The position numbers and the translations under genes were made by a program. From Escherichia coli 042 (GTDB lineage Bacteria > Pseudomonadota > Gammaproteobacteria > Enterobacterales > Enterobacteriaceae): a stretch of DNA of 64,000 bases. The DNA is taken from assembly GCF_000027125.1 (NCBI RefSeq), contig NC_017626.1; one strand, given 5' to 3'. Within the stretch, counting starts at the first letter, position 1. Every line of letters begins with the position of its first letter. Of the stretch, positions 17,088 to 64,000 are shown one piece after another. A model generated the notes under the pieces. That model had not been told where the DNA came from and searched no databases. It saw only the letters and a program-made list of their open reading frames with translations.

Positions 17088-17807
17088 ATGGTTACCTCTT
17101 CCTGTTATATAAAAATTTTAAATAACAAGCAAGGGAATATAAATGGAAATAACAAAAAATGCAACATAAAAACAGTCATCAGCGGCTGCTTTTTAATGTT
17201 TACTTTATCATTTTCTATTACCTTTATTCCTGCATTCCTTACAAACAGGCAGGAACTTATATCCAGGGGACTTCTTGTTCCAGCATTATTTCTTGCTGAA
17301 TTTCTAATTCTTGTTCCACTGTATTTTATTTTCTTCCGAAAAAGAGAAGGATTAGGAAGAGGTTCTTTTCGACCGGATGTTTTTTACTCTTTTCTCTTTA
17401 ATAATGATTATTCAGTTATTTGTCCCTTATCTGCTGGCAGTGAGGAAAACGGAAGAATGGATGATCTCGCAAATGTCTTTTTCTGAGGCCATTTTATGTT
17501 TCTTCTGTACTTCTATGTTCCTGTATATGAAGAGATTGTATTTCGAGGGTGTTTTTTTAATTCTTTATAATTCTGGTTTAATGACAATATTTACATCTCT
17601 GCCATTGTAACATCAGTCATATTCTCTGCATTGCATCTACAATATACTGACTTTCGTACATTTTTTATGCTCTTTTTAGTATCGTTAGTTCTTATTAGCG
17701 CACAAATAAAGTCGAATGGTCTGTTAATGCCCATATTACTTCACATGGCGATGAATGCAGTCATAGCAGGAATACAATATCTAGCTTATATCAGTTATTC
17801 CCATTAA
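17088..17807 (+). pseudogene. Degenerate CPBP (CAAX protease / Abi) family intramembrane protease-like gene, disrupted by frameshifts
   Basis: Frame ending at 17807 encodes a typical CPBP C-terminus (FSALHLQ ... NGLLMPILLHMAMNAV); upstream hydrophobic segments lie in two other overlapping frames (17088..17486, 17377..17610). Confidence 0.45.
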
Positions 17808-18002: not shown

Positions 18003-18224
18003 CTAGGATGATAATCCTATACCTGAGGGAGACATGGAGGGACTAACCGTCGCAGTCGTTGCCCATGAATGTACTTTATCACCTATATAAGCCCCTGCAA
18101 TAGAACCAAATCCCGGGCTAATAAACGTACCTGCAAGTGAACCAATAGCAATTAATTCTGCCTGCCCGTCATTCCCGTCACCTCCAGATATTTGTTTTAT
18201 TTCATTTTCAGATAGTTTTCTCAT
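18003..18224 (-). CDS. mcmA: Microcin M precursor (double-glycine leader, Ser-rich C-terminus)
   Basis: 73-aa product from internal ATG: MRKLSENEIKQISGG leader then DGNDGQAELIAIGSLAGTF...SPSGIGLSS, matching microcin M as recalled. The 133-aa track ORF is an upstream extension. Confidence 0.8.
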   Translation of the reverse strand: MRKLSENEIKQISGGDGNDGQAELIAIGSLAGTFISPGFGSIAGAYIGDKVHSWATTATVSPSMSPSGIGLSS

Positions 18225-18294
18225 TTCAACACCTTCGCTATAAAATTTGTGAAGAAGTAAAAATTCACGTTTAACCACAACGATAAAAATGTAA

Positions 18295-18441
18295 CTACAA
18301 GTGATAAAAAAACATATATAGATTAAAAAAATTATATCTATAGTAATAACTAAGATATAATGACACCGGAATATAAAAGAACAGATAATTGATAACAAAA
18401 GCAATCACTGTTATTTTTATATCCTTCTTAACCTCCCCCAT
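18295..18441 (-). CDS. Candidate small hydrophobic immunity protein (McmI-like), below the ORF-track size cutoff
   Basis: Hand translation: ATG 8 nt after aaggag gives a 48-aa ORF (MGEVKKDIKITVIAFVINYLFFYIPVSLYLSYYYRYNFFNLYMFFYHL) between the mchF stop and the mcmA start. Confidence 0.4.
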   Translation of the reverse strand: MGEVKKDIKITVIAFVINYLFFYIPVSLYLSYYYRYNFFNLYMFFYHL

Positions 18442-18476
18442 CGACAAAACTCCTTACAAAGTTACACCAGTGGATT

Positions 18477-20591
18477 TTAAATAGAAATAATCCTGTCAAC
18501 AGTTCTCAACGTAGTTTCTCTGTGTGCAATAATCACCCGGGTGATATTCATTTTTTTTATGGCAGCATTCACGAAACGTTCACTTTCTGTATCAAGAGAA
18601 CTTGTAGCCTCATCCATAAATAATATTCCAGGTTTCCGGTATAAAGCTCGGGCAATGAATATACGCTGTTTTTGACCGCCGGAAAGACCTTCCCCCAGTT
18701 CACCTATTAACGTTTCATACCCCATTGGCATTTTCATTATCACATCATGAATATGACTTGCTCTGGCACATTCTGTCATCCATTCGTCGTCTGTTTCTTC
18801 TGCAAACCCACAGATATTTTCACGAATTGATCCTGAAAATAGCCGGTCGTCCTGCATAACACAGGCTATCATACGGTGATAATTATTTATTCCAAGTTGA
18901 CGTATATCCGTGCCATTAACCAGTACTTTTCCACTATCTGGTTCAAACAGTCCACATAATACTTTCATTAATGTGGTTTTTCCGGCACCGGAGGCACCAG
19001 TTATAGCCACACTTTCTCCCGGAGCCACAGACAAATTCAGACCACTGAATACCTGTGCTGACTGGCTGTCATACCGGTAGCTTAAATCAGTGGTTTCCAG
19101 TGAAACCGGGCTCATGTCAGCAACGATTTCAATTTCCGGTTTCTTTTCTTCCTTTTCATGTAGTGCAATATCTGCAATGCGCTCATTATGCAGACTCATT
19201 ATTCTCAGTTGAAGAAGAAAACTGGTCAGCGAAGCAACCCGATCCGAAAACTGCCCACGAAAAGAACCAAATGCCACAAACATCCCTATTGTCATCTGAT
19301 TATCGATCACAAGGCTTGCACCCAGCCATAAAATCGCCACCTGATCACAGGCGGCAACAAAAGTATTTATCCCCCCGAAGAGCAAATCCATCTTGGTTAA
19401 CTTAATACCTGAATTGATCGCATCTATTTTCAGGTTAAGCCAGTGTGTTCCCCGGATCCCAGCCATACCTTGGATTTTTACCGTGGCAATACCATACAGG
19501 CTTTCCATAAAATAGGAGCTGGCCCGGGCCCCCCTGACAAGAGTTTCTTCCGATATTTGCCGGTAATAGCCGTATGTCACCAGACGAATAAGAACGTAAA
19601 CCATGGTAAAACCGAGCACTATCCAGGTAAGATATCCTCCATATAACAGCATCATCACAAAAACACCCACAACCATAATACTGTCCATGATTGCCCCAAC
19701 CACACAGGTGGTAAAGGTGGCCCTCAAAGTGTCAAGGGAGCCAAAACGCGACTGGATATCACCTAATTTACGGCGTTCAAAAAACGCCAGCGGCAGTCTG
19801 AGAAGATGGTTAAACAGACCCGACTGCCACTGTATATTGATGAGCGTGCTCATAACCAGTGAGGACCATGCACGCAGCATACTCACCGCGGCCCTGAGCA
19901 ATATAAAGAACATCAGGCCAGCAGAAATAAGCGTCAGCAGCCCTCTGTCCCCCGCCGGAATCGCATGATCCATAACCAGCTGAGTCCCCACCGGCATTAC
20001 CAGATTGATTGCTTCAATTACAACTGACAGACAGAAAATTTTCGCCAGTGTTCTTTTAATACCGTAAATACTGTTAATCAGTGAACGGAGACTTATGCGG
20101 ATCTGCTGGGTTTCCGCCAGGAATTCACTTCCAGGCCAGACCTCAAGTGCAATGCCCGTAAAATACCGGCTCATTTCCTCCCGACCGAGATATCTTCTGC
20201 CTCTGGCCGGATCATGCAGTACATAACGGTTACGCTTTACGCTGACCAGCACGACAAAGTGACTGAAATCCCAGTGGAGAATACACGGCATTTTGAGGGC
20301 ACCAAGTTCATCCAGCTCCAGTGAAAGAGCCCGGGTGACCATCCCCAGCTGCTCCGCTATTCCATTGATTCCTGCAAGGTTTGCTCCACGGGCCGAGAGA
20401 TTAAACTTCCGGCGAAGAGATATCAGGTCAATATTCTTACCAAAATGACCGCATATCATTGCCAGGCAGGCCAGTCCACATTCAGCGGTCTCCGTCTGAT
20501 GAATAACCGGAACACGACGTCGCCAGCGCATATCAAGCTGATTTATAATTTGTCTGAAACTCCCGTTAGTCATTGAGCGGTCCTGTTGCAC
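18477..20591 (-). CDS. mchF: Microcin ABC exporter with N-terminal C39 peptidase domain (CvaB-like)
   Basis: 704-aa ORF; C39 motif around [18 protein letters not shown], six-TM region, C-terminal ABC ATPase ([17 protein letters not shown]). Confidence 0.9.
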
Positions 20592-26007: not shown

Positions 26008-26241
26008 ATGAGAGAAATATCAGATAACATGCTTGATTCCGTGAAAGGAGGGATGAATCTTAATGGATTACCTGCTTCTACTAATGTAATAGATCTACGT
26101 GGAAAAGATATGGGAACATATATTGATGCTAATGGAGCATGCTGGGCTCCGGATACTCCATCCATCATCATGTATCCGGGGGGAAGTGGACCTTCTTATA
26201 GTATGAGTAGTTCCACATCCAGTGCAAACAGCGGCAGTTAA
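26008..26241 (+). CDS. mchS2: Microcin I47 precursor (double-glycine leader, Ser-rich C-terminus)
   Basis: 77-aa ORF: leader MREISDNMLDSVKGG, C-terminus SMSSSTSSANSGS typical of siderophore-microcins. Confidence 0.7.
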   Translation: MREISDNMLDSVKGGMNLNGLPASTNVIDLRGKDMGTYIDANGACWAPDTPSIIMYPGGSGPSYSMSSSTSSANSGS

Positions 26242-53114: not shown

Positions 53115-54794
53115 GTGATGAAATTATTTAAATCAATTTTACTGATTGCCGCCTGTCACGCGGCGCAGGCCAGCGCGGCCATTGATATTAACGCTGACCC
53201 AAACCTTACAGGAGCCGCGCCGCTTACCGGTATTCTGAACGGGCAACAGTCGGATACGCAAAACATGAGCGGCTTCGACAATACCCCGCCGCCCGCACCG
53301 CCGGTGGTAATGAGCCGTATGTTTGGTGCTCAACTTTTCAACGGCACCAGCGCGGATAGCGGTGCGACGGTAGGATTCAACCCTGACTATATTCTGAATC
53401 CGGGTGATAGCATTCAGGTTCGCTTGTGGGGTGCGTTCACCTTTGATGGTGCATTACAGATTGATCCCAAAGGTAATATTTTTCTGCCAAACGTTGGTCC
53501 GGTGAAAGTTGCCGGGGTTAGCAATAGTCAGTTGAACACTCTGGTTACATCAAAAGTGAAGGAAGTGTACCAGTCCAACGTCAACGTCTACGCCTCCTTA
53601 TTACAGGCGCAGCCAGTAAAAGTGTACGTGACCGGATTTGTGCGTAATCCTGGTCTGTATGGCGGTGTGACGTCTGATTCGTTACTCAATTATCTGATCA
53701 AGGCTGGCGGCGTTGATCCAGAGCGCGGAAGTTACGTTGATATTGTGGTCAAGCGCGGTAACCGCGTGCGCTCCAACGTCAACCTGTACGACTTCCTGCT
53801 GAACGGCAAACTGGGGCTTTCGCAGTTCGCCGATGGTGACACCATCATCGTCGGGCCGCGTCAGCATACTTTCAGCGTTCAGGGCGATGTCTTTAACAGC
53901 TACGACTTTGAGTTCCGCGAAAGCAGCATTCCCGTAACGGAAGCGTTGAGCTGGGCGCGCCCTAAGCCTGGCGCGACTCACATTACGATTATGCGTAAAC
54001 AGGGGCTGCAAAAACGCAGCGAATACTATCCGATCAGTTCTGCGCCAGGCCGTATGTTGCAAAATGGCGATACCTTAATCGTGAGCACTGACCGCTATGC
54101 CGGCACCATTCAGGTGCGGGTTGAAGGCGCACACTCCGGTGAACATGCCATGGTACTGCCTTATGGTTCCACTATGCGTGCGGTTCTGGAAAAAGTCCGT
54201 CCGAACAGCATGTCGCAGATGAACGCGGTTCAGCTTTATCGCCCATCAGTGGCTCAGCGTCAGAAAGAGATGCTGAATCTCTCGCTGCAAAAGCTGGAGG
54301 AAGCATCACTTTCTGCCCAGTCATCCACCAAAGAAGAAGCCAGCCTGCGAATGCAGGAAGCACAACTGATCAGCCGCTTTGTGGCGAAAGCACGCACCGT
54401 GGTTCCGAAAGGTGAAGTGATCCTCAACGAATCCAATATTGATTCTGTTCTGCTTGAAGATGGCGACGTCATCAATATTCCGGAGAAAACATCGCTGGTT
54501 ATGGTTCATGGCGAAGTGCTGTTCCCGAACGCGGTGAGCTGGCAGAAGGGTATGACCACCGAGGATTACATCGAGAAATGTGGTGGCCTGACGCAAAAAT
54601 CGGGTAACGCCAGAATTATCGTCATTCGTCAGAACGGTGCAGCCGTCAACGCAGAAGATGTGGATTCACTCAAACCGGGCGATGAGATTATGGTTCTGCC
54701 GAAATATGAATCGAAAAATATTGAAGTTACCCGTGGTATTTCCACCATCCTCTATCAGCTGGCGGTGGGTGCAAAAGTGATTCTGTCTTTGTAA
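53115..54794 (+). CDS. kpsD: Capsule polysaccharide export outer-membrane/periplasmic protein (OPX family)
   Basis: 559-aa ORF with N-terminal signal peptide; synteny kpsE-kpsD-kpsU. Confidence 0.9.
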   Translation: MMKLFKSILLIAACHAAQASAAIDINADPNLTGAAPLTGILNGQQSDTQNMSGFDNTPPPAPPVVMSRMFGAQLFNGTSADSGATVGFNPDYILNPGDSIQVRLWGAFTFDGALQIDPKGNIFLPNVGPVKVAGVSNSQLNTLVTSKVKEVYQSNVNVYASLLQAQPVKVYVTGFVRNPGLYGGVTSDSLLNYLIKAGGVDPERGSYVDIVVKRGNRVRSNVNLYDFLLNGKLGLSQFADGDTIIVGPRQHTFSVQGDVFNSYDFEFRESSIPVTEALSWARPKPGATHITIMRKQGLQKRSEYYPISSAPGRMLQNGDTLIVSTDRYAGTIQVRVEGAHSGEHAMVLPYGSTMRAVLEKVRPNSMSQMNAVQLYRPSVAQRQKEMLNLSLQKLEEASLSAQSSTKEEASLRMQEAQLISRFVAKARTVVPKGEVILNESNIDSVLLEDGDVINIPEKTSLVMVHGEVLFPNAVSWQKGMTTEDYIEKCGGLTQKSGNARIIVIRQNGAAVNAEDVDSLKPGDEIMVLPKYESKNIEVTRGISTILYQLAVGAKVILSL

Positions 54795-54803
54795 GGAGTT
54801 GAG

Positions 54804-55544
54804 ATGAGCAAAGCAGTTATTGTCATTCCGGCTCGCTATGGCTCCTCGCGCCTGCCGGGTAAGCCACTGCTCGATATTGTTGGTAAACCGATGATCCAGC
54901 ATGTTTACGAGCGTGCGTTACAGGTGGCGGGCGTCGCAGAAGTTTGGGTGGCAACAGACGATCAGCGTGTTGAAAAGGCCGTGCAGGCATTTGGCGGGAA
55001 AGCCATCATGACGCGCAACGATCATGAATCCGGCACCGATCGGCTGGTCGAGGTGATGCATAAAGTCGAGGCAGATATCTACATTAACCTGCAGGGCGAC
55101 GAACCAATGATTCGCCCGCGGGATGTAGAAACGCTGCTACAAGGAATGCGTGATGATCCCGCGTTGCCAGTGGCAACGCTATGCCACGCGATTTCTGCCG
55201 AAGAAGCGACCGAGCCAAGCACGGTAAAAGTAGTGGTAAATACCCGCCAGGATGCGCTTTATTTCAGCCGTTCGCCGATTCCGTATCCGCGTAATGCTGA
55301 AAAAGCGCGCTACCTGAAACACGTTGGTATTTACGCTTATCGTCGCGATGTGCTGCAAAACTACAGTCAGTTACCAAGGACGGCATTAAGTCAAATCGAG
55401 GAACTGGAGCAGCTACGGTTAATGAACGCGGGGATCAACATTCGCACATTTGAGGTTGCCGCAACCGGTCCGGGCGTCGACACCCCGGCATGCCTTGAAA
55501 AGGTGCGTGCCCTGATGGCGCAAGAACTGGCTGAAAACGCATGA
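54804..55544 (+). CDS. kpsU: CMP-Kdo synthetase (3-deoxy-manno-octulosonate cytidylyltransferase), capsule-specific
   Basis: 246-aa ORF with KdsB-like N-terminus ([19 protein letters not shown]). Confidence 0.9.
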
Positions 55545-57568
55545 TTGGCATTTACTCGCCTGGCATCTGGCGTATTCCGCATCTGGAGAAATTTCTGGCA
55601 CAACCGTGCCAGAAACTTTCTCTGCTGCGTCCTGTTCCGCAAAACGTCGATGCTATCGCCGTGTGGGGACATCGTCCCAGCGCGGCGAAACCAGTCGCCA
55701 TCGCCAAAGCAGCGGGAAAACCCGTCATTCGTCTGGAAGATGGATTTGTGCGTTCGCTGGATCTTGGCGTCAATGGCGAGCCGCCGCTTTCTCTGGTGGT
55801 GGATGATTGTGGCATTTACTACGATGCCAGCAAGCCTTCAGCACTGGAGAAACTGGTACAGGATAAAGCCGGAAATACAGCTCTGATAAGCCAGGCCAGA
55901 GAAGCGATGCACACCATCGTGACCGGGGATTTGTCGAAATATAACCTGGCACCTGCGTTTGTGGCTGATGAGTCAGAACGTTCAGACATCGTTCTGGTTG
56001 TCGATCAGACATTTAATGATATGTCAGTGACGTATGGCAATGCTGGCCCGCATGAGTTTGCTGCCATGCTGGAAGCCGCGATGGCGGAAAATCCTCAAGC
56101 CGAAATTTGGGTGAAGGTGCACCCAGATGTACTGGAAGGAAAGAAAACAGGTTATTTCGCCGATCTGCGCGCCACGCAACGAGTACGTTTAATTGCCGAG
56201 AATGTCAGCCCGCAGTCGCTGTTGCGACACGTTTCCCGGGTTTACGTCGTGACCTCCCAGTACGGCTTTGAAGCCTTGCTGGCAGGAAAACCGGTGACAT
56301 GCTTCGGCCAGCCCTGGTATGCAGGCTGGGGCTTAACCGACGATCGCCATCCGCAGTCCGCTTTGTTATCTGCCCGACGCGGTTCTGCCACGCTGGAGGA
56401 ACTTTTTGCCGCTGCATACCTGCGTTACTGTCGCTATATCGATCCGCAAACGGGAGAAGTAAGCGATCTATTTACCGTGCTGCAATGGCTGCAATTACAA
56501 CGTCGACATCTGCAACAGCGTAATGGTTATTTATGGGCGCCAGGCTTAACGCTGTGGAAGTCGGCAATCCTGAAACCTTTCTTGCGTACCGCAACAAACA
56601 GACTGAGTTATTCACGCCGTTGTACTGCGGCGACGGCTTGCGTGGTATGGGGTGTAAAGGGAGAACAGCAATGGCGAGCCGAAGCGCAACAAAAATCACT
56701 GCCGTTATGGCGAATGGAAGATGGTTTTCTGCGTTCATCCGGACTTGGCTCTGACCTGCTGCCGCCGCTATCGTTGGTACTGGATAAACGCGGGATCTAC
56801 TATGACGCCACGCGCCCCAGCGACCTGGAAGTCCTGCTTAATCACAGCCAGTTAACGCTGGCGCAGCAGATGCGAGCTGAAAAATTACGCCAGCGACTGG
56901 TTGAAAGCAAACTGAGCAAATACAACCTAGGGGCCGATTTTTCTCTGCCTGCCGAGGCCAAAGATAAAAAAGTTATCCTGGTGCCGGGTCAGGTAGAAGA
57001 CGATGCCTCGATTAAAACCGGCACAGTCTCGATTAAGAGCAACCTTGAGTTATTACGCACAGTACGCGAGCGTAATCCGCACGCTTACATTATTTATAAA
57101 CCGCACCCGGATGTACTGGTGGGGAATCGCAAGGGCGATATTTCGGCAGAATTGACTGCTGAACTTGCTGACTATCAGGCACTGGACGCAGATATTATTC
57201 AATGCATTCAGCGCGCAGATGAAGTGCACACCATGACATCATTGTCCGGGTTTGAAGCGTTATTACATGGCAAGCAAGTTCATTGTTACGGCCTGCCCTT
57301 CTATGCCGGTTGGGGTTTAACCGTCGATGAACATCACTGCCCGCGCCGCGAACAAAAATTAACGTTAGCAGATTTGATCTATCAGGCGTTGATTGTTTAT
57401 CCAACCTATATCCACCCAACACGGCTACAACCTATTACGGTTGAAGAGGCGGCGGAATATTTGATCCAGACGCCGCGCAAGCCGATGTTTATTACCCGAA
57501 AAAAAGCGGGGCGAGTAATACGCTATTACCGCAAATTAATTATGTTCTGCAAGGTCAGATTTGGCTAA
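55541..57568 (+). CDS. kpsC: Capsule Kdo-linker transferase
   Basis: 675-aa ORF with internal duplication (two similar halves, each with a YAGWGLT motif); start overlaps the kpsU stop. Confidence 0.9.
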
Positions 57569-57602
57569 ACAATTTCATAGTTGACTATTACGCAAATTAT
57601 TT

Positions 57603-58850
57603 ATGCAAGACAACGCACTAACCATTTTATTATCGGGTAAAAAATATCTGCTATTGCAGGGGCCAATGGGACCCTTTTTCAATGACGTCGCCGAATGGTT
57701 AGAGTCATTAGGCCGTAACGCTGTGAATGTTGTCTTCAACGGCGGGGATCGTTTTTACTGCCGCCATCGACAATACCTGGCTTACTACCAAACGCCGAAA
57801 GAGTTTCCCGGTTGGCTGCGAGATCTCCACCGACAATATGACTTTGATACCATCCTCTGCTTTGGTGACTGCCGCCCATTGCACAAAGAAGCAAAACGCT
57901 GGGCAAAGTCGAAAGGGATCCGCTTTCTGGCATTTGAAGAAGGATATTTACGCCCGCAATTTATAACCGTTGAAGAAGGCGGAGTGAACGCATATTCATC
58001 GCTACCGCGCGACCCGGATTTTTATCGTAAGTTGCCAGATATGCCTGCGCCGCACGTTGAGAACTTAAAACCTTCAACGATGAAACGTATAGGTCATGCG
58101 ATGTGGTATTACCTGATGGGTTGGCATTACCGTCATGAGTTCCCTCGCTACCGCCACCACAAATCATTTTCCCCGTGGTATGAAGCTCGTTGCTGGGTTC
58201 GTGCATACTGGCGCAAGCAACTTTACAAGGTAACACAGCGTAAGGTATTGCCGAGGTTAATGAATGAGCTGGATCAGCGTTATTATCTTGCCGTTTTGCA
58301 GGTGTATAACGATAGCCAGATTCGTAACCACAGCAATTATAACGATGTGCGTGACTATATTAATGAAGTCATGTACTCATTTTCGCGTAAAGCGCCAAAA
58401 GAAAGTTATTTGGTGATCAAACATCATCCGATGGATCGTGGTCACAGACTCTATCGACCATTAATTAAGCGGTTGAGTAAGGAATATGGCTTAGGTGAGC
58501 GCGTCATTTATGTGCACGATCTCCCGATGCCGGAATTATTACGCCACGCAAAAGCGGTGGTGACGATTAACAGTACGGCGGGGATCTCTGCGTTGATTCA
58601 TAATAAACCACTTAAAGTGATGGGCAATGCCCTGTACGACATCAAAGGCTTAACGTATCAAGGGCATTTGCACCAGTTCTGGCAGGCCGATTTTAAACCG
58701 GATATGAAACTGTTTAAGAAGTTTCGGGGGTATTTATTGATGAAGACGCAGGTTAATGCGGTTTATTATGGGGGAGTAAGCATTGGAGAAAAAAATAGGT
58801 ATGAAAGTGATTACTCCTATTATTCAAAGAAACCGCATCATAATGACTAA
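57603..58850 (+). CDS. kpsS: Capsule Kdo transferase
   Basis: 415-aa ORF, last region 1 gene, convergent with region 2. Confidence 0.85.
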   Translation: MQDNALTILLSGKKYLLLQGPMGPFFNDVAEWLESLGRNAVNVVFNGGDRFYCRHRQYLAYYQTPKEFPGWLRDLHRQYDFDTILCFGDCRPLHKEAKRWAKSKGIRFLAFEEGYLRPQFITVEEGGVNAYSSLPRDPDFYRKLPDMPAPHVENLKPSTMKRIGHAMWYYLMGWHYRHEFPRYRHHKSFSPWYEARCWVRAYWRKQLYKVTQRKVLPRLMNELDQRYYLAVLQVYNDSQIRNHSNYNDVRDYINEVMYSFSRKAPKESYLVIKHHPMDRGHRLYRPLIKRLSKEYGLGERVIYVHDLPMPELLRHAKAVVTINSTAGISALIHNKPLKVMGNALYDIKGLTYQGHLHQFWQADFKPDMKLFKKFRGYLLMKTQVNAVYYGGVSIGEKNRYESDYSYYSKKPHHND

Positions 58851-58958
58851 TAATTAGATAATCTACTAATTTTAATCAAAAAAATAATTATGTAAAACTA
58901 ACTATATGGATTAATGTGTTCATTATCTTTAGTTGCTAAAAATTAGCAAGTTATATAT

Positions 58959-60551
58959 TTATTTACACCTATAATTTTCGGGTGATGACATTGCCCAGGT
59001 TACTCCAGAAGATATGATGTTTGCCGGTGCCCCGGATATAATCTGATTAGATGTAAAAAATTTATTTTCCACAATACAACCGGCAGACACATAACATTCA
59101 TCAGAAATATGTGTTCCTTTTAGCAACATCACACGTGACCCAATCCAAACCCTATCCCCTATATTTATAGGCTGGCCCGGATTTAATAAGTAGCCATTGC
59201 TATCAAGAAGGGAATGCTCGTCCTGACAACAAATCTTAACATCGCTACCTATAACGCAACCATCTCCTATTTTACAACAATTATCGCCATTCAAATAAAT
59301 ATCTAGCTGCTTATCAATAATGCATGAGTTTCCAATACATACTTTTCCACCGATATTATTATTCAATATTGATAAGTTATTATATTTTGAATTTCCTAAA
59401 TGAACATAACCTCCACTATTTAATAAAATTGTAGAATCCTTAAAAGTGGCTCCATCTTCAATTACCACCATATTATTAACACCACTGAATTTCAACATTA
59501 AACCAGAAACAGATTGATATGTACCATCTGATACATACTCTATTTTATTTCCATATATAATTGTATTCTTATTAACTTTAAAATCTTTATACTTATGAAA
59601 TAATGAATATAATTCTTTAATTTTAGATTCAGATTTTGAACATTGCAAAAGTTTAATATCACCTGTAGAAATCTTGTTTATTTTTTCAATCCCAATGGAA
59701 TCTTTCCCATAAATATCATATCCAGTTGCATGATCTATATATCGTTTTACGTACTCTTCAAAGTTTATAGACTCATTATAAAATGAATAACAATGATCGG
59801 TTTTGATAAAGTTAAGGTTCAAATGTTTTATTACACTAGGGTATAAGGGAACGTGAATATGATTTTTAGAAAAAGGATATATATCGATATTTCTTTTTTT
59901 ATTAATTCCCAAACAATCAAGAATGCTATTTGTTAACCATAAAAAATAATCGTTTGTTGGGTGATTTACTGTCACCGACATATAATTACTGTAAATAGCA
60001 TTTTTTAAATATGGTACTGAAGGTATATCAACTTTATTTAATTTTTCACGTTGGTTTAGATCATTAAATGTTTTTGTTAAATTGTCCGTTATTGTTTTTT
60101 CATCATAAAAGTCAGGATCAGAAACGATTTTTATAATGTTTTCTGTGCGAATATTTGCTAACAGCAAAGAATTTATATTTTTATCGCCGTATGGAAATAT
60201 TCCTGAAGGAGATATCGAGTATTTCCTATTTGGCCTAATTACAGGATTTTGTGAGTGCTGGGGGAAATAAGCAGAAAGCCAAAAATTAGGAATGGATATT
60301 CGAATGCAATCCGAACGTAACTTACTACAAATATGATCTGTGCAAAAAAAAGGATCAAAGGTTGACGATACATGTTGATATATAAAAAGATCAATTTTGG
60401 ATAATGTATCATCATCCAAATAAGACTTATCTTTTAGATACACATCTTTAACTTTAACTAGATTGAAATAATTTATAAAATCAGTTTGTTCAAGAAAATT
60501 TTGTAGATGTGTATGCTGGCAATTCCCATAAATCATACATAGTTTTTTCAT
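58959..60551 (-). CDS. Capsule region 2 protein with C-terminal hexapeptide-repeat (acyltransferase-like) domain
   Basis: 530-aa very AT-rich ORF; C-terminal ~180 aa show a left-handed beta-helix repeat pattern. Confidence 0.5.
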   Translation of the reverse strand: MKKLCMIYGNCQHTHLQNFLEQTDFINYFNLVKVKDVYLKDKSYLDDDTLSKIDLFIYQHVSSTFDPFFCTDHICSKLRSDCIRISIPNFWLSAYFPQHSQNPVIRPNRKYSISPSGIFPYGDKNINSLLLANIRTENIIKIVSDPDFYDEKTITDNLTKTFNDLNQREKLNKVDIPSVPYLKNAIYSNYMSVTVNHPTNDYFLWLTNSILDCLGINKKRNIDIYPFSKNHIHVPLYPSVIKHLNLNFIKTDHCYSFYNESINFEEYVKRYIDHATGYDIYGKDSIGIEKINKISTGDIKLLQCSKSESKIKELYSLFHKYKDFKVNKNTIIYGNKIEYVSDGTYQSVSGLMLKFSGVNNMVVIEDGATFKDSTILLNSGGYVHLGNSKYNNLSILNNNIGGKVCIGNSCIIDKQLDIYLNGDNCCKIGDGCVIGSDVKICCQDEHSLLDSNGYLLNPGQPINIGDRVWIGSRVMLLKGTHISDECYVSAGCIVENKFFTSNQIISGAPANIISSGVTWAMSSPENYRCK

Positions 60552-60779
60552 AATGCACTACCAAAACATATGACTTTAATATTAGCGAAGCATCGAATAT
60601 AATAAAAATTACTCAAGCCATTAAGAGTTGATATTAATTAATAACGATTGCATTTCGCTATGTAATTTATCTTATATTAATAGGAGGCATCGTTTATTGT
60701 AGATGCCTCCCATTAATGGGATTATATCACTTTATATTTCATGAAGGCTTTAGCATTTCATACAAAAACAACATTAGAA

Positions 60780-63700
60780 TTAATTTAGATATTTCACATA
60801 CATTTCACGCCCCTTATCCCAAATGATTTTTGTAATTTCACTTTTATAAAACTTGCGTTTGAAATATATAAAGGTATTCCTCTTCAAATTGGCTTCTTTT
60901 GGAACTGACTCCGGGACAGGACTAGGTTGCGTTTTGCTCTGTTCTTTATTTGGAATGATCTTTTTTACTGGTTTCGTAGCGGTAGTTGACTTCTTAAGTG
61001 GTGGATAAATTACAGGGAAATGTTTATCCTCATATAGAGGGTCGTCAGCGACATACTGATTTAATAACAATTGGTCTGTAGTATTACTGCAAAGATAAGA
61101 CAATGGGTAAACGAATGCATCCCGTGTTTGAGAGTTAATATACTCCCATTTGCCTTTAAATAAAGAAACGTAATCTTTACAGAACTCCTTCATATATACT
61201 TGTGATTTTAAAGTTAAAAGAGATGTTGCTGTAATTTCAGACGGAAAAATAATTGGTTTTACTGCTGATTCTGATTTCTCATAACCGTAACAGGTAGATG
61301 TTAAAGCATCTGATAATAGTAATTCATAAAATGATGGGAGAAATACTCGAAGCCCACGTCTAAAAGGATTAAATGTATCAACTAAGTAACTATTTATGTC
61401 ATTTACACATTTATGTTTCCTTTCACGGAACATAAATAAAGGTATATCAATCCCCATAAGATCAGCTAATATATCACGACTGGTTCCTCTTGCGCCCAAG
61501 TCGAATACAGCGAATTTTTTATTTTCGGTAATGCTAGTAATATATTCAATCAAATACTTATTTTTTTTATTTACTTCATTACTACATGAAGCAAAATCAT
61601 AGTATTTATGTATAAACTGTGAAATTTCATGTTTATTTTTACTACTGTCAGCAGACAAGTTCAGCTTCAACTCTTGCACTAACTTTTTAGCTATTCTATC
61701 ATTTGAAACGTCTATATCAAATACGTAATCTAAAAACTTTTTAACATTTAACTTTGAATTATAAAGAGACAGCAGCGTGCCTTTTAATGCTTTATTGTTA
61801 TATGCAGACAAGGTAGCTGTTCTGGATATATAAAAGTATACACTTTTAGGTAACTGATGATTATACAGTGTATCATTTATATAATTGTAAACATCAAAAA
61901 CGACTCTGGAATCTCTTGAAGAAAAAAGTATTTTCTCATAATTGCTATTTTTTGTATTTTGTATAAGCCAGTGAGTGAGACTTAAAACTAATGGTCCAAA
62001 AATATAATAACCAAGAAGCGCACTTGAATTATTGATAGAAGTTTTATGATCAAATGGAACGAATGGATTATCAAATAGCTTATTAGCGATCATTCCAAGA
62101 TAAAATGAAAAGTTTTCTTTATAGACAAAACCTAATACATCAGGCTTAAACAGATTAGTTTTTCTAAATTCATCTATTGCCTTAGGATAATGCTCTGCCA
62201 GTAATCCATTATCGGTAGCTCTCTGAACATCAGATTTTAAATTATCCCCGATGAATAGAGTTTTAGAAGCATCAAAACCTTCTTTCAATAATATAAGCTT
62301 GAATAAGGAACCATTATATTTTACTTTATTGTACTCACATGAGATATAAACTGGTATCTGATTAATTTCATATCCATTACTTATTAAAATATCTTTTAAT
62401 AAGTCTTCCGGTAAGTACATATCAGAAGCAACAAATAAATTTTTATGATGGATTTTAGCCAGTGTAAAATATTCTAACATTGTTTCTCTTGGAGTGAGTA
62501 ACTGGCGTTCCATTTCACATTCTATGTTTTTTATTTTACTTATTGTATCATCTGTAAATCCAGTACTTTCTTGTAATTTATTATATATCTCATCTAGCGT
62601 TACTTCTATTTTACCTTGTCTAGCCAAGCTTTCTGCATGAATTCTTGTTGTTGAAAAATTAAAACTCCTTAATTTTGTTACTTTATATATATCTTCTTCT
62701 ATTAGATTAAATAGATCTGTTGGCTTGACCAACGGACGGCATAACAAAGTATCAAAAATATCAAAACCAATATTTCTTATATTATCATTAATTAAATAAC
62801 CAAGTAATTTTTCAAATTTAGTTTGCTCATAGTTTATATGTACATTATTCTGTAAAAGAAGCTGCTGAGAAAGTCTCGCTTTATATCCACGCAATGTTCC
62901 CAATTGCGGAAGATACTTAATATATTCGTTATTTTCAATGTTTTTTATTATTTGTTTTAAATATAAGAAACTATTTTTTTCATTACGTAAAAAACGAGTG
63001 TTAACTTTATGTGTTAATACGTACTTAATTATTTTATTACTTATATCAATATAATCAGATGAAAGAGTTGCATTGGTTGATAAGTAATTATACACATGTT
63101 CAACAGTACCAATTGAAAATTTGCTATTAGGGCTATTTCCATAGCTAAAAATTGGCTTCCCTAAAAGCATGGCTGGCATAAATATATTTGAGTAAATATT
63201 TATAACAGCATCAACATGAGGAAGTACTCTTATAGAAATATCATTATCAATAGATGACACTTTATCGAGATTAATTATCCTTTCATTATTATCAATATAA
63301 TGATCGTTTTCTGTTCTATCTAACGAGTGTTTTGAATAAACTATTGCGCAATCATTTGGAATTTGTTCTAAAAGAAACTGTAAAAAAGCTGCATTAGATG
63401 AAAATCCAGAATATTTTTTAAATCGTAATGAAGGAAAATTTCCCGGATAGAATATCAAATATTTAAATTTACTGTCAGGATCGAGAGTTTTTCTATTTAT
63501 TTGTGTTTCAAATATAATGTTATCTTGATAATATTTTTTTAAATTTTGTATATCGATAACATCCTCTGGTACTATTTCAACTTTTTTTATAGCTTCAAAA
63601 AAGGCATCATCATATTTTTTGTCTTTTGTTGAAACATTAAATAACACATCGGGGTTGTTATTTTCCAATCGCCAGAAACCAGTATGAGAGCCCTCAAGCA

Positions 63701-63917
63701 AGACACTATCTTTAAAAACCTCTGCAAAAATTTCAGAACAAAATTCCCAGTAAATAACAATATCAGGATTTAAATTACCCAGCTTATTCCTAAAATAATC
63801 AACCAGATGTTCTTTTAGCTTTTTTGAAATGTCATTGCTAATAACCATCTCAACTGTCGAATCATAATAATCCAATATATTTCTTATTTCTGAGTCTGGT
63901 ATATTAATCACTGTCAC
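60780..63917 (-). CDS. Large capsule region 2 protein; putative polymer-synthesising transferase with HAD-like motif
   Basis: 1045-aa AT-rich ORF with DxDxT-like motif (FDIFDTLLCRP); function inferred only from position in kps region 2. Confidence 0.45.
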   Translation of the reverse strand: MTVINIPDSEIRNILDYYDSTVEMVISNDISKKLKEHLVDYFRNKLGNLNPDIVIYWEFCSEIFAEVFKDSVLLEGSHTGFWRLENNNPDVLFNVSTKDKKYDDAFFEAIKKVEIVPEDVIDIQNLKKYYQDNIIFETQINRKTLDPDSKFKYLIFYPGNFPSLRFKKYSGFSSNAAFLQFLLEQIPNDCAIVYSKHSLDRTENDHYIDNNERIINLDKVSSIDNDISIRVLPHVDAVINIYSNIFMPAMLLGKPIFSYGNSPNSKFSIGTVEHVYNYLSTNATLSSDYIDISNKIIKYVLTHKVNTRFLRNEKNSFLYLKQIIKNIENNEYIKYLPQLGTLRGYKARLSQQLLLQNNVHINYEQTKFEKLLGYLINDNIRNIGFDIFDTLLCRPLVKPTDLFNLIEEDIYKVTKLRSFNFSTTRIHAESLARQGKIEVTLDEIYNKLQESTGFTDDTISKIKNIECEMERQLLTPRETMLEYFTLAKIHHKNLFVASDMYLPEDLLKDILISNGYEINQIPVYISCEYNKVKYNGSLFKLILLKEGFDASKTLFIGDNLKSDVQRATDNGLLAEHYPKAIDEFRKTNLFKPDVLGFVYKENFSFYLGMIANKLFDNPFVPFDHKTSINNSSALLGYYIFGPLVLSLTHWLIQNTKNSNYEKILFSSRDSRVVFDVYNYINDTLYNHQLPKSVYFYISRTATLSAYNNKALKGTLLSLYNSKLNVKKFLDYVFDIDVSNDRIAKKLVQELKLNLSADSSKNKHEISQFIHKYYDFASCSNEVNKKNKYLIEYITSITENKKFAVFDLGARGTSRDILADLMGIDIPLFMFRERKHKCVNDINSYLVDTFNPFRRGLRVFLPSFYELLLSDALTSTCYGYEKSESAVKPIIFPSEITATSLLTLKSQVYMKEFCKDYVSLFKGKWEYINSQTRDAFVYPLSYLCSNTTDQLLLNQYVADDPLYEDKHFPVIYPPLKKSTTATKPVKKIIPNKEQSKTQPSPVPESVPKEANLKRNTFIYFKRKFYKSEITKIIWDKGREMYVKYLN

Positions 63918-64000
63918 ATTATTCTTTATTAAATTCTGTTTTATTTCTCTTTTTTCCAGAACGGAATCCAGGGCTAAATAGGTGACTTTTAGATCTTTTT

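Follow-up and report, generated by a model that had tools for sequence, protein, structure and literature searches.

A 48-codon ORF between mchF and mcmA in Escherichia coli as a probable frameshifted allele of the microcin M immunity gene mcmI

The closest described counterpart of the locus analyzed here is mcmI, which encodes the microcin M immunity protein. McmI of strains CA58, CA46, Nissle 1917, and CFT073 is a 73-aa protein (UniProt Q83TS3), and the Nissle sequence is named 'Microcin M imunity protein McmI' in that entry. In the reannotation of CFT073, McmI occupies 1182901–1183122 and McmA occupies 1183119–1183397 (PMC2785843), and plasmid-borne mcmI shields the sensitive strain LF82 from the microcin M of Nissle (PMC6776366). 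The intact Nissle frame has 73 codons (MGEVKKDIKITVIAFVINYLFFYIPVSLYLSYYYGYNFFNLYMFFLSLVVTFLSLWLNVNFYFFTNLIAKVLK), and its TGA overlaps the ATG of mcmA as ATGA. The class IIb immunity proteins MchI (H47), MceB (E492), and MchS3 (I47) are, like McmI, small membrane proteins encoded beside the toxin gene (PMC7472721, PMC6795089), and class IIb immunity proteins are said to contain either two transmembrane helices or three (PMC7472721). We detected no sequence family that MchI, MceB, and MchS3 have in common with McmI. The precursor of microcin M normally has 92 aa, with a Ser/Gly-rich C-terminal tail that is the site of siderophore attachment (PMC7472721); MchCD joins to this tail the glycosylated enterobactin on which uptake through catecholate receptors depends (PMC7472721, PMC6795089). 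The truncated mcmI of E. coli H47 is reported to be non-functional (PMC6795089).

In an intact cluster, mcmI, encoding 73 aa with two hydrophobic segments, lies 3' of mchF behind its own AAGGAG ribosome binding site, and its TGA overlaps the mcmA ATG, so that immunity and toxin come from one message. McmI is a small inner-membrane protein that guards microcin M producers against their own toxin.

We analyzed a 64,000-nucleotide stretch of E. coli DNA, hereafter called the window. A first-pass annotation had drawn attention to a 48-aa, strongly hydrophobic ORF on the minus strand at 18295–18441, with an aaggag motif 8 nt ahead of its ATG, in a place where the ORF track was empty between the exporter gene mchF and the microcin M precursor gene mcmA. 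Re-translation reproduced that hand translation and its coordinates exactly: the ORF runs on the minus strand from ATG at 18441–18439 to TAG at 18297–18295 and encodes the 48 aa MGEVKKDIKITVIAFVINYLFFYIPVSLYLSYYYRYNFFNLYMFFYHL, within the minus-strand context ...TAAGGAGTTTTGTCGATGGGGGAGG.... The Shine–Dalgarno sequence AAGGAG was likewise found on the minus strand at 18455–18450, separated from the ATG by the 8-nt spacer TTTTGTCG, and it is unchanged across all aligned alleles. The empty track was also borne out, as RefSeq has no feature under the mcmI stretch, intact or broken, in the genomes listed. An ORF finder proposed a 50-aa version that starts at TTG 18447; however, this codon sits just 2 nt from the Shine–Dalgarno sequence, and we therefore take ATG 18441 as the real start. 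The same ORF finder listed a 133-aa ORF at 18003–18404 (minus strand), which runs through the T-rich mcmI sequence. We rejected it as a separate gene, as it is the mcmA frame, in which no stop occurs for 60 codons ahead of the true mcmA ATG at 18224.

The ORF has the gene order of an mcmI locus on one strand. Directly upstream lies mchF, the microcin export peptidase/ABC transporter gene, an intact ORF at 18477–20573 (minus strand) named from the annotation of a near-identical genome. Its stop codon (18477–18479) is 35 nt from the ORF, which begins at ATG 18441 and ends 70 nt before the ATG of mcmA at 18224. No terminator was found between mchF and mcmA, and promoter-like matches in this interval were at chance level (5 versus 3.7 ± 1.7 expected). 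Nothing in these signals argues against co-transcription.

A 48-codon ORF by itself could arise by chance. We nevertheless judged this ORF to be real because the 221-nt stretch at 18221–18441 is conserved across about 255 E. coli chromosomes, at 98.4–98.8% DNA identity, and because its ATG coincides with the published start of McmI in CFT073: position 18470 of the window aligns to CFT073 1182872, which places ATG 18441 exactly at 1182901. A wider stretch of 571 bases around the ORF matches about 255 E. coli chromosomes at 96–100% identity, and a 245-base stretch containing the 221-nt gene footprint has 98.4% identity to both Nissle and CFT073. Compared with Nissle 1917, the ORF lacks one T and carries three substitutions. 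The first-pass annotation had regarded the ORF as a candidate microcin M immunity gene, possibly a truncated or variant McmI, and had proposed alignment to known McmI sequences as a check. The alignment to Q83TS3 gave 44 identical residues among the first 45. Judged by this match and by its position between mchF and mcmA, the ORF is mcmI by descent, and both suggestions stand: it consists of the N-terminal 45 codons of mcmI followed by three out-of-frame codons. The window has the locus, ribosome binding site, and start codon in common with mcmI of CA58, CA46, Nissle 1917, and CFT073.

The lesion is a single-base difference in a homopolymer. In intact alleles, a run of eight T (T8) follows an ATG (ATG TTT TTT TTA TCA ...), and Nissle 1917 reads ATG TTTTTTTT ATC; in the window, the run at 18306–18312 (minus strand) has seven (T7). 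This is the sole length difference in all alignments. The native frame is thereby lost after codon 45: codons 1–45 are those of native McmI with the substitution G35R, codons 46–48 are read out of frame as YHL, and TAG follows. With one T restored, the window sequence encodes a 73-aa protein, with R35 and F67, that is present in a public collection (P0002). The 28 remaining native codons of mcmI persist in the −1 frame at 18305–18221 (minus strand; LSLVVTFLSLWLNVNFYFFTNFIAKVLK), with a TGA at 18223–18221 that overlaps the mcmA ATG as ATGA. The window allele itself, unlike intact mcmI, stops after 48 codons rather than 73 and does not reach the ATGA overlap with mcmA. Another T7 run, the first in mcmI, at 18325–18331 (minus strand), has its normal length in the window. 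It is a second frameshift site elsewhere, as it is T8 in SBF22, with products of 38/39 aa.

We compared the hydropathy of the two products. Intact McmI has two hydrophobic peaks, of 2.13 and 2.18 for scan windows that begin at residues 10 and 41, respectively, in a simple Kyte–Doolittle calculation over 17-residue scan windows and not from a dedicated topology predictor. The 48-aa product (GRAVY 0.64) has a single clear hydrophobic segment, at approximately residues 8–30; it keeps the first peak only, and values are about 0 for scan windows starting beyond residue 24. The second peak, which is lost, spans scan windows starting at residues 37–45, approximately residues 37–61. One segment thus remains where intact McmI has two. 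The second hydrophobic segment may be required for McmI immunity. One T lost from the T8 run takes translation out of the native frame after codon 45, with a stop three codons on, and the product, if made, would be a 48-aa peptide with the first segment only; immunity is most likely lost in this allele.

Allele counts were obtained with 94–95-nt queries with non-repetitive flanks against 255 complete E. coli records. The exact T8 form was present in 195 of the 255 and the exact T7 form in 9; a T7 allele with the extra substitution F39L accounted for 7 more, giving at least 16 of 255 records with the T7 frameshift. The T7 run occurs on several single nucleotide polymorphism (SNP) backgrounds, namely the window type, CS6L, and TL-14/L015. 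The 245-base sequence of the window is identical in four complete genomes from Japan and Mexico: JE86-ST05, JE86-ST02, BEC1-S17-ESBL-09, and H3 (the last from Mexico). The exact 48-aa product (P0016) is found on 697 public contigs from several sources, under names that include 'putative microcin M imunity protein McmI' and 'McmI (Microcin M immunity protein) truncated protein'. Residue for residue, the window product is the same as truncated McmI in the databases (e.g., BBU15766.1 and the UniRef entry bearing the latter name). The ending '...MFFYHL' recurs on other backgrounds, in a version with G35 (150 contigs) and one with G35/L39 (592 contigs), and further truncated forms have 43 and 56 aa. 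On these distributions, the T7 lesion is both inherited and recurrent, and the frameshifted form of mcmI is already known, catalogued, and common in E. coli. A keyword search of the literature on frameshifted or truncated mcmI returned unrelated papers only. The homopolymer frameshift, the nonsense codon in mcmA described below, and the presence of the truncated allele under its own name in public databases go beyond what the first-pass annotation had seen.

The lesion in mcmI does not stand alone. The microcin M precursor gene mcmA (18003–18224, minus strand; Pfam MccV, E 4.5e-13) is cut to 73 aa by a CAG-to-TAG change at 18005–18003 (Q74*), located by alignment. The ancestral frame would reach 17946, and Q74* removes the 19-aa Ser/Gly-rich tail. 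The NCBI Prokaryotic Genome Annotation Pipeline (PGAP) names the truncated mcmA 'colicin V family bacteriocin', not mcmA. The TAG allele is found in 4 of 233 complete E. coli genomes, which are only the four that carry the mcmI allele of the window. Adjoining mcmA in divergent orientation, at approximately 17143–17804 (plus strand), is an mcmM-like pseudogene for a CPBP/Rce1-family membrane protease; tblastn matches with the 228-aa Nissle protein are divided over two frames and contain in-frame stops, and in all four genomes of the window haplotype PGAP marks the gene 'frameshifted; internal stop'. The genes for microcins H47 and I47 next door have intact reading frames. The cluster of the window is, as in strain H47, of the H47 type, with mchA-like, mchS1-like, mchS3, and mchS2 genes.

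Three longer contigs have the window haplotype, including the mcmA TAG, yet carry T8 and an intact 73-aa mcmI. Because such contigs exist within the same haplotype, the lesion in the toxin gene probably preceded the frameshift in mcmI, although contigs that combine T8 with the mcmA TAG are few, from four places, and reversion or homopolymer miscalls are possible among them. One genome, L010 (GCA_041331255.1, locus 868–2965), has the window haplotype with an intact T8 mcmI, and its mchF is broken into two ORFs (379 and 304 aa), a further, independent decay of the export gene in the lineage.

Lesions accompany T7 on the other backgrounds as well. TL-14 and L015 are without mchE and without an intact mchF. 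In CS6L (T7) and SBF22 (frameshifted at the first T-run), the mcmA product is shortened to 77 aa, and 42 nt beyond comes a transposase gene of the IS3 family, suggestive of an IS insertion. AGR6137 has the same arrangement of a 77-aa mcmA and an IS3-family gene with an intact mcmI. As judged from these lesions, the other T7 lineages are also unable to make or export microcin M.

Our preferred reading, which we hold with high confidence, is that the ORF is a frameshifted mcmI allele, effectively a pseudogene, in a decayed microcin M module. Its loss would have been tolerated in a lineage without active microcin M, in which the tail of mcmA is gone and the mcmM-like gene is broken. Selection on the immunity gene may have been relaxed after loss of the toxin, and the T-runs would have been its most mutable sites.

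It could be argued that the 48-aa, single-helix peptide is a short functional variant, still produced and retaining part of the immunity to microcin M or another membrane function. The lesion spares the start codon, the ribosome binding site, and 45 native codons; the peptide could thus still be made, and it might keep some activity. Products ending in '...MFFYHL' are very common, on 697, 592, and 150 contigs in three protein backgrounds, and immunity to the microcin M of neighbors could stay useful after a strain has lost its own toxin. However, the second hydrophobic segment is gone, whereas class IIb immunity proteins are credited with two or three helices (PMC7472721), and strain H47 has a truncated mcmI that is reported to be non-functional (PMC6795089). 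The truncation points, moreover, vary (38, 39, 43, and 56 aa), as would be expected of random decay and not of a selected short form, and in each T7 lineage examined a further lesion blocks production or export of microcin M. We therefore consider a functional short variant unlikely.

The T-run could also be viewed as a switch, acting either through slipped-strand phase variation between T7 and T8 or through slippage of RNA polymerase or the ribosome that restores some full-length McmI. The change from T8 to T7 recurs on several SNP backgrounds, and both forms occur on the haplotype of the window. In addition, as read from the sequence, a −1 slip of the P-site tRNA-Phe on U7 would recreate the native sequence, and the intact allele contains an in-phase U UUU UUA heptamer. 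However, no stable structure lies downstream (z = −0.46), and on this ground we discarded the idea that the intact allele undergoes programmed −1 frameshifting at its heptamer. Efficient transcriptional slippage and classical contingency loci generally call for longer runs than 7–8 T. The exact T8 form prevails in 195 of 255 records, and the T7 loci carry other inactivating lesions, a pattern of one-way decay; we regard a switch as highly improbable. That the T8 run is a reversible slippage site that switches microcin M immunity, or else that the 48-aa form has a membrane function of its own, is, as a joint proposal, very unlikely. A −1 slip at U UUU UUA in the intact allele would enter the 18003–18404 frame and give an McmI–McmA fusion, for which no downstream structure provides support.

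Finally, a sequencing or assembly error in the homopolymer, which would leave the gene intact, is extremely improbable: indel errors in long reads are typical of runs of 7–8 bases, and T8 is seen in a few contigs of this haplotype, but we rejected an artefact because of the T7 allele counts, with an identical T7 in four independently assembled complete genomes of the haplotype and in at least 12 further complete genomes of other backgrounds, the exact product on 697 contigs from several sources, and an allele that tracks lineage-specific SNPs, as an inherited mutation does.

On the reading of a frameshifted mcmI in a decayed module, the microcin M module of this strain appears dead, with lesions in the immunity gene, the toxin gene, and the accessory gene, and the strain should thus be counted neither among microcin M producers nor among immune strains. 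The matter also bears on how such loci are counted. Intact McmI matched no NCBIfam or Pfam model, and RefSeq leaves mcmI unannotated in the genomes listed because no such model exists; the empty ORF track is therefore a general annotation gap and is not specific to the window. Annotation-based surveys of microcin immunity will overlook mcmI, and presence/absence scoring by BLAST will count the frameshifted mcmI as present. In some NCBI records, the intact 73-aa McmI is called 'TetR family transcriptional regulator', an evident misannotation.

An 18.6-kb comparison of the window with JE86-ST05 shows 11 mismatches. Collinearity of the whole window with JE86-ST05, including its frameshifted cadA, was considered and rejected, as the match stops at about 49700 (99.7–99.9% identity; 97.5% over 45859–49699). 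From about 49700 to 64000, there is no match to the JE86-ST05 flank (cadCBA side); therefore, the island or its neighborhood differs in the source strain.

A further small gene lies just past mchS3. An intact 77-aa ORF at 26008–26241 (plus strand) has a double-glycine leader and a Ser-rich tail and is an exact match to UniProt Q712Q0, 'MchS2 protein'; mchS2 is the microcin I47 precursor gene according to the literature. RefSeq has no annotation at the matching position of JE86-ST05, and the ORF is a second small microcin gene overlooked by annotation.
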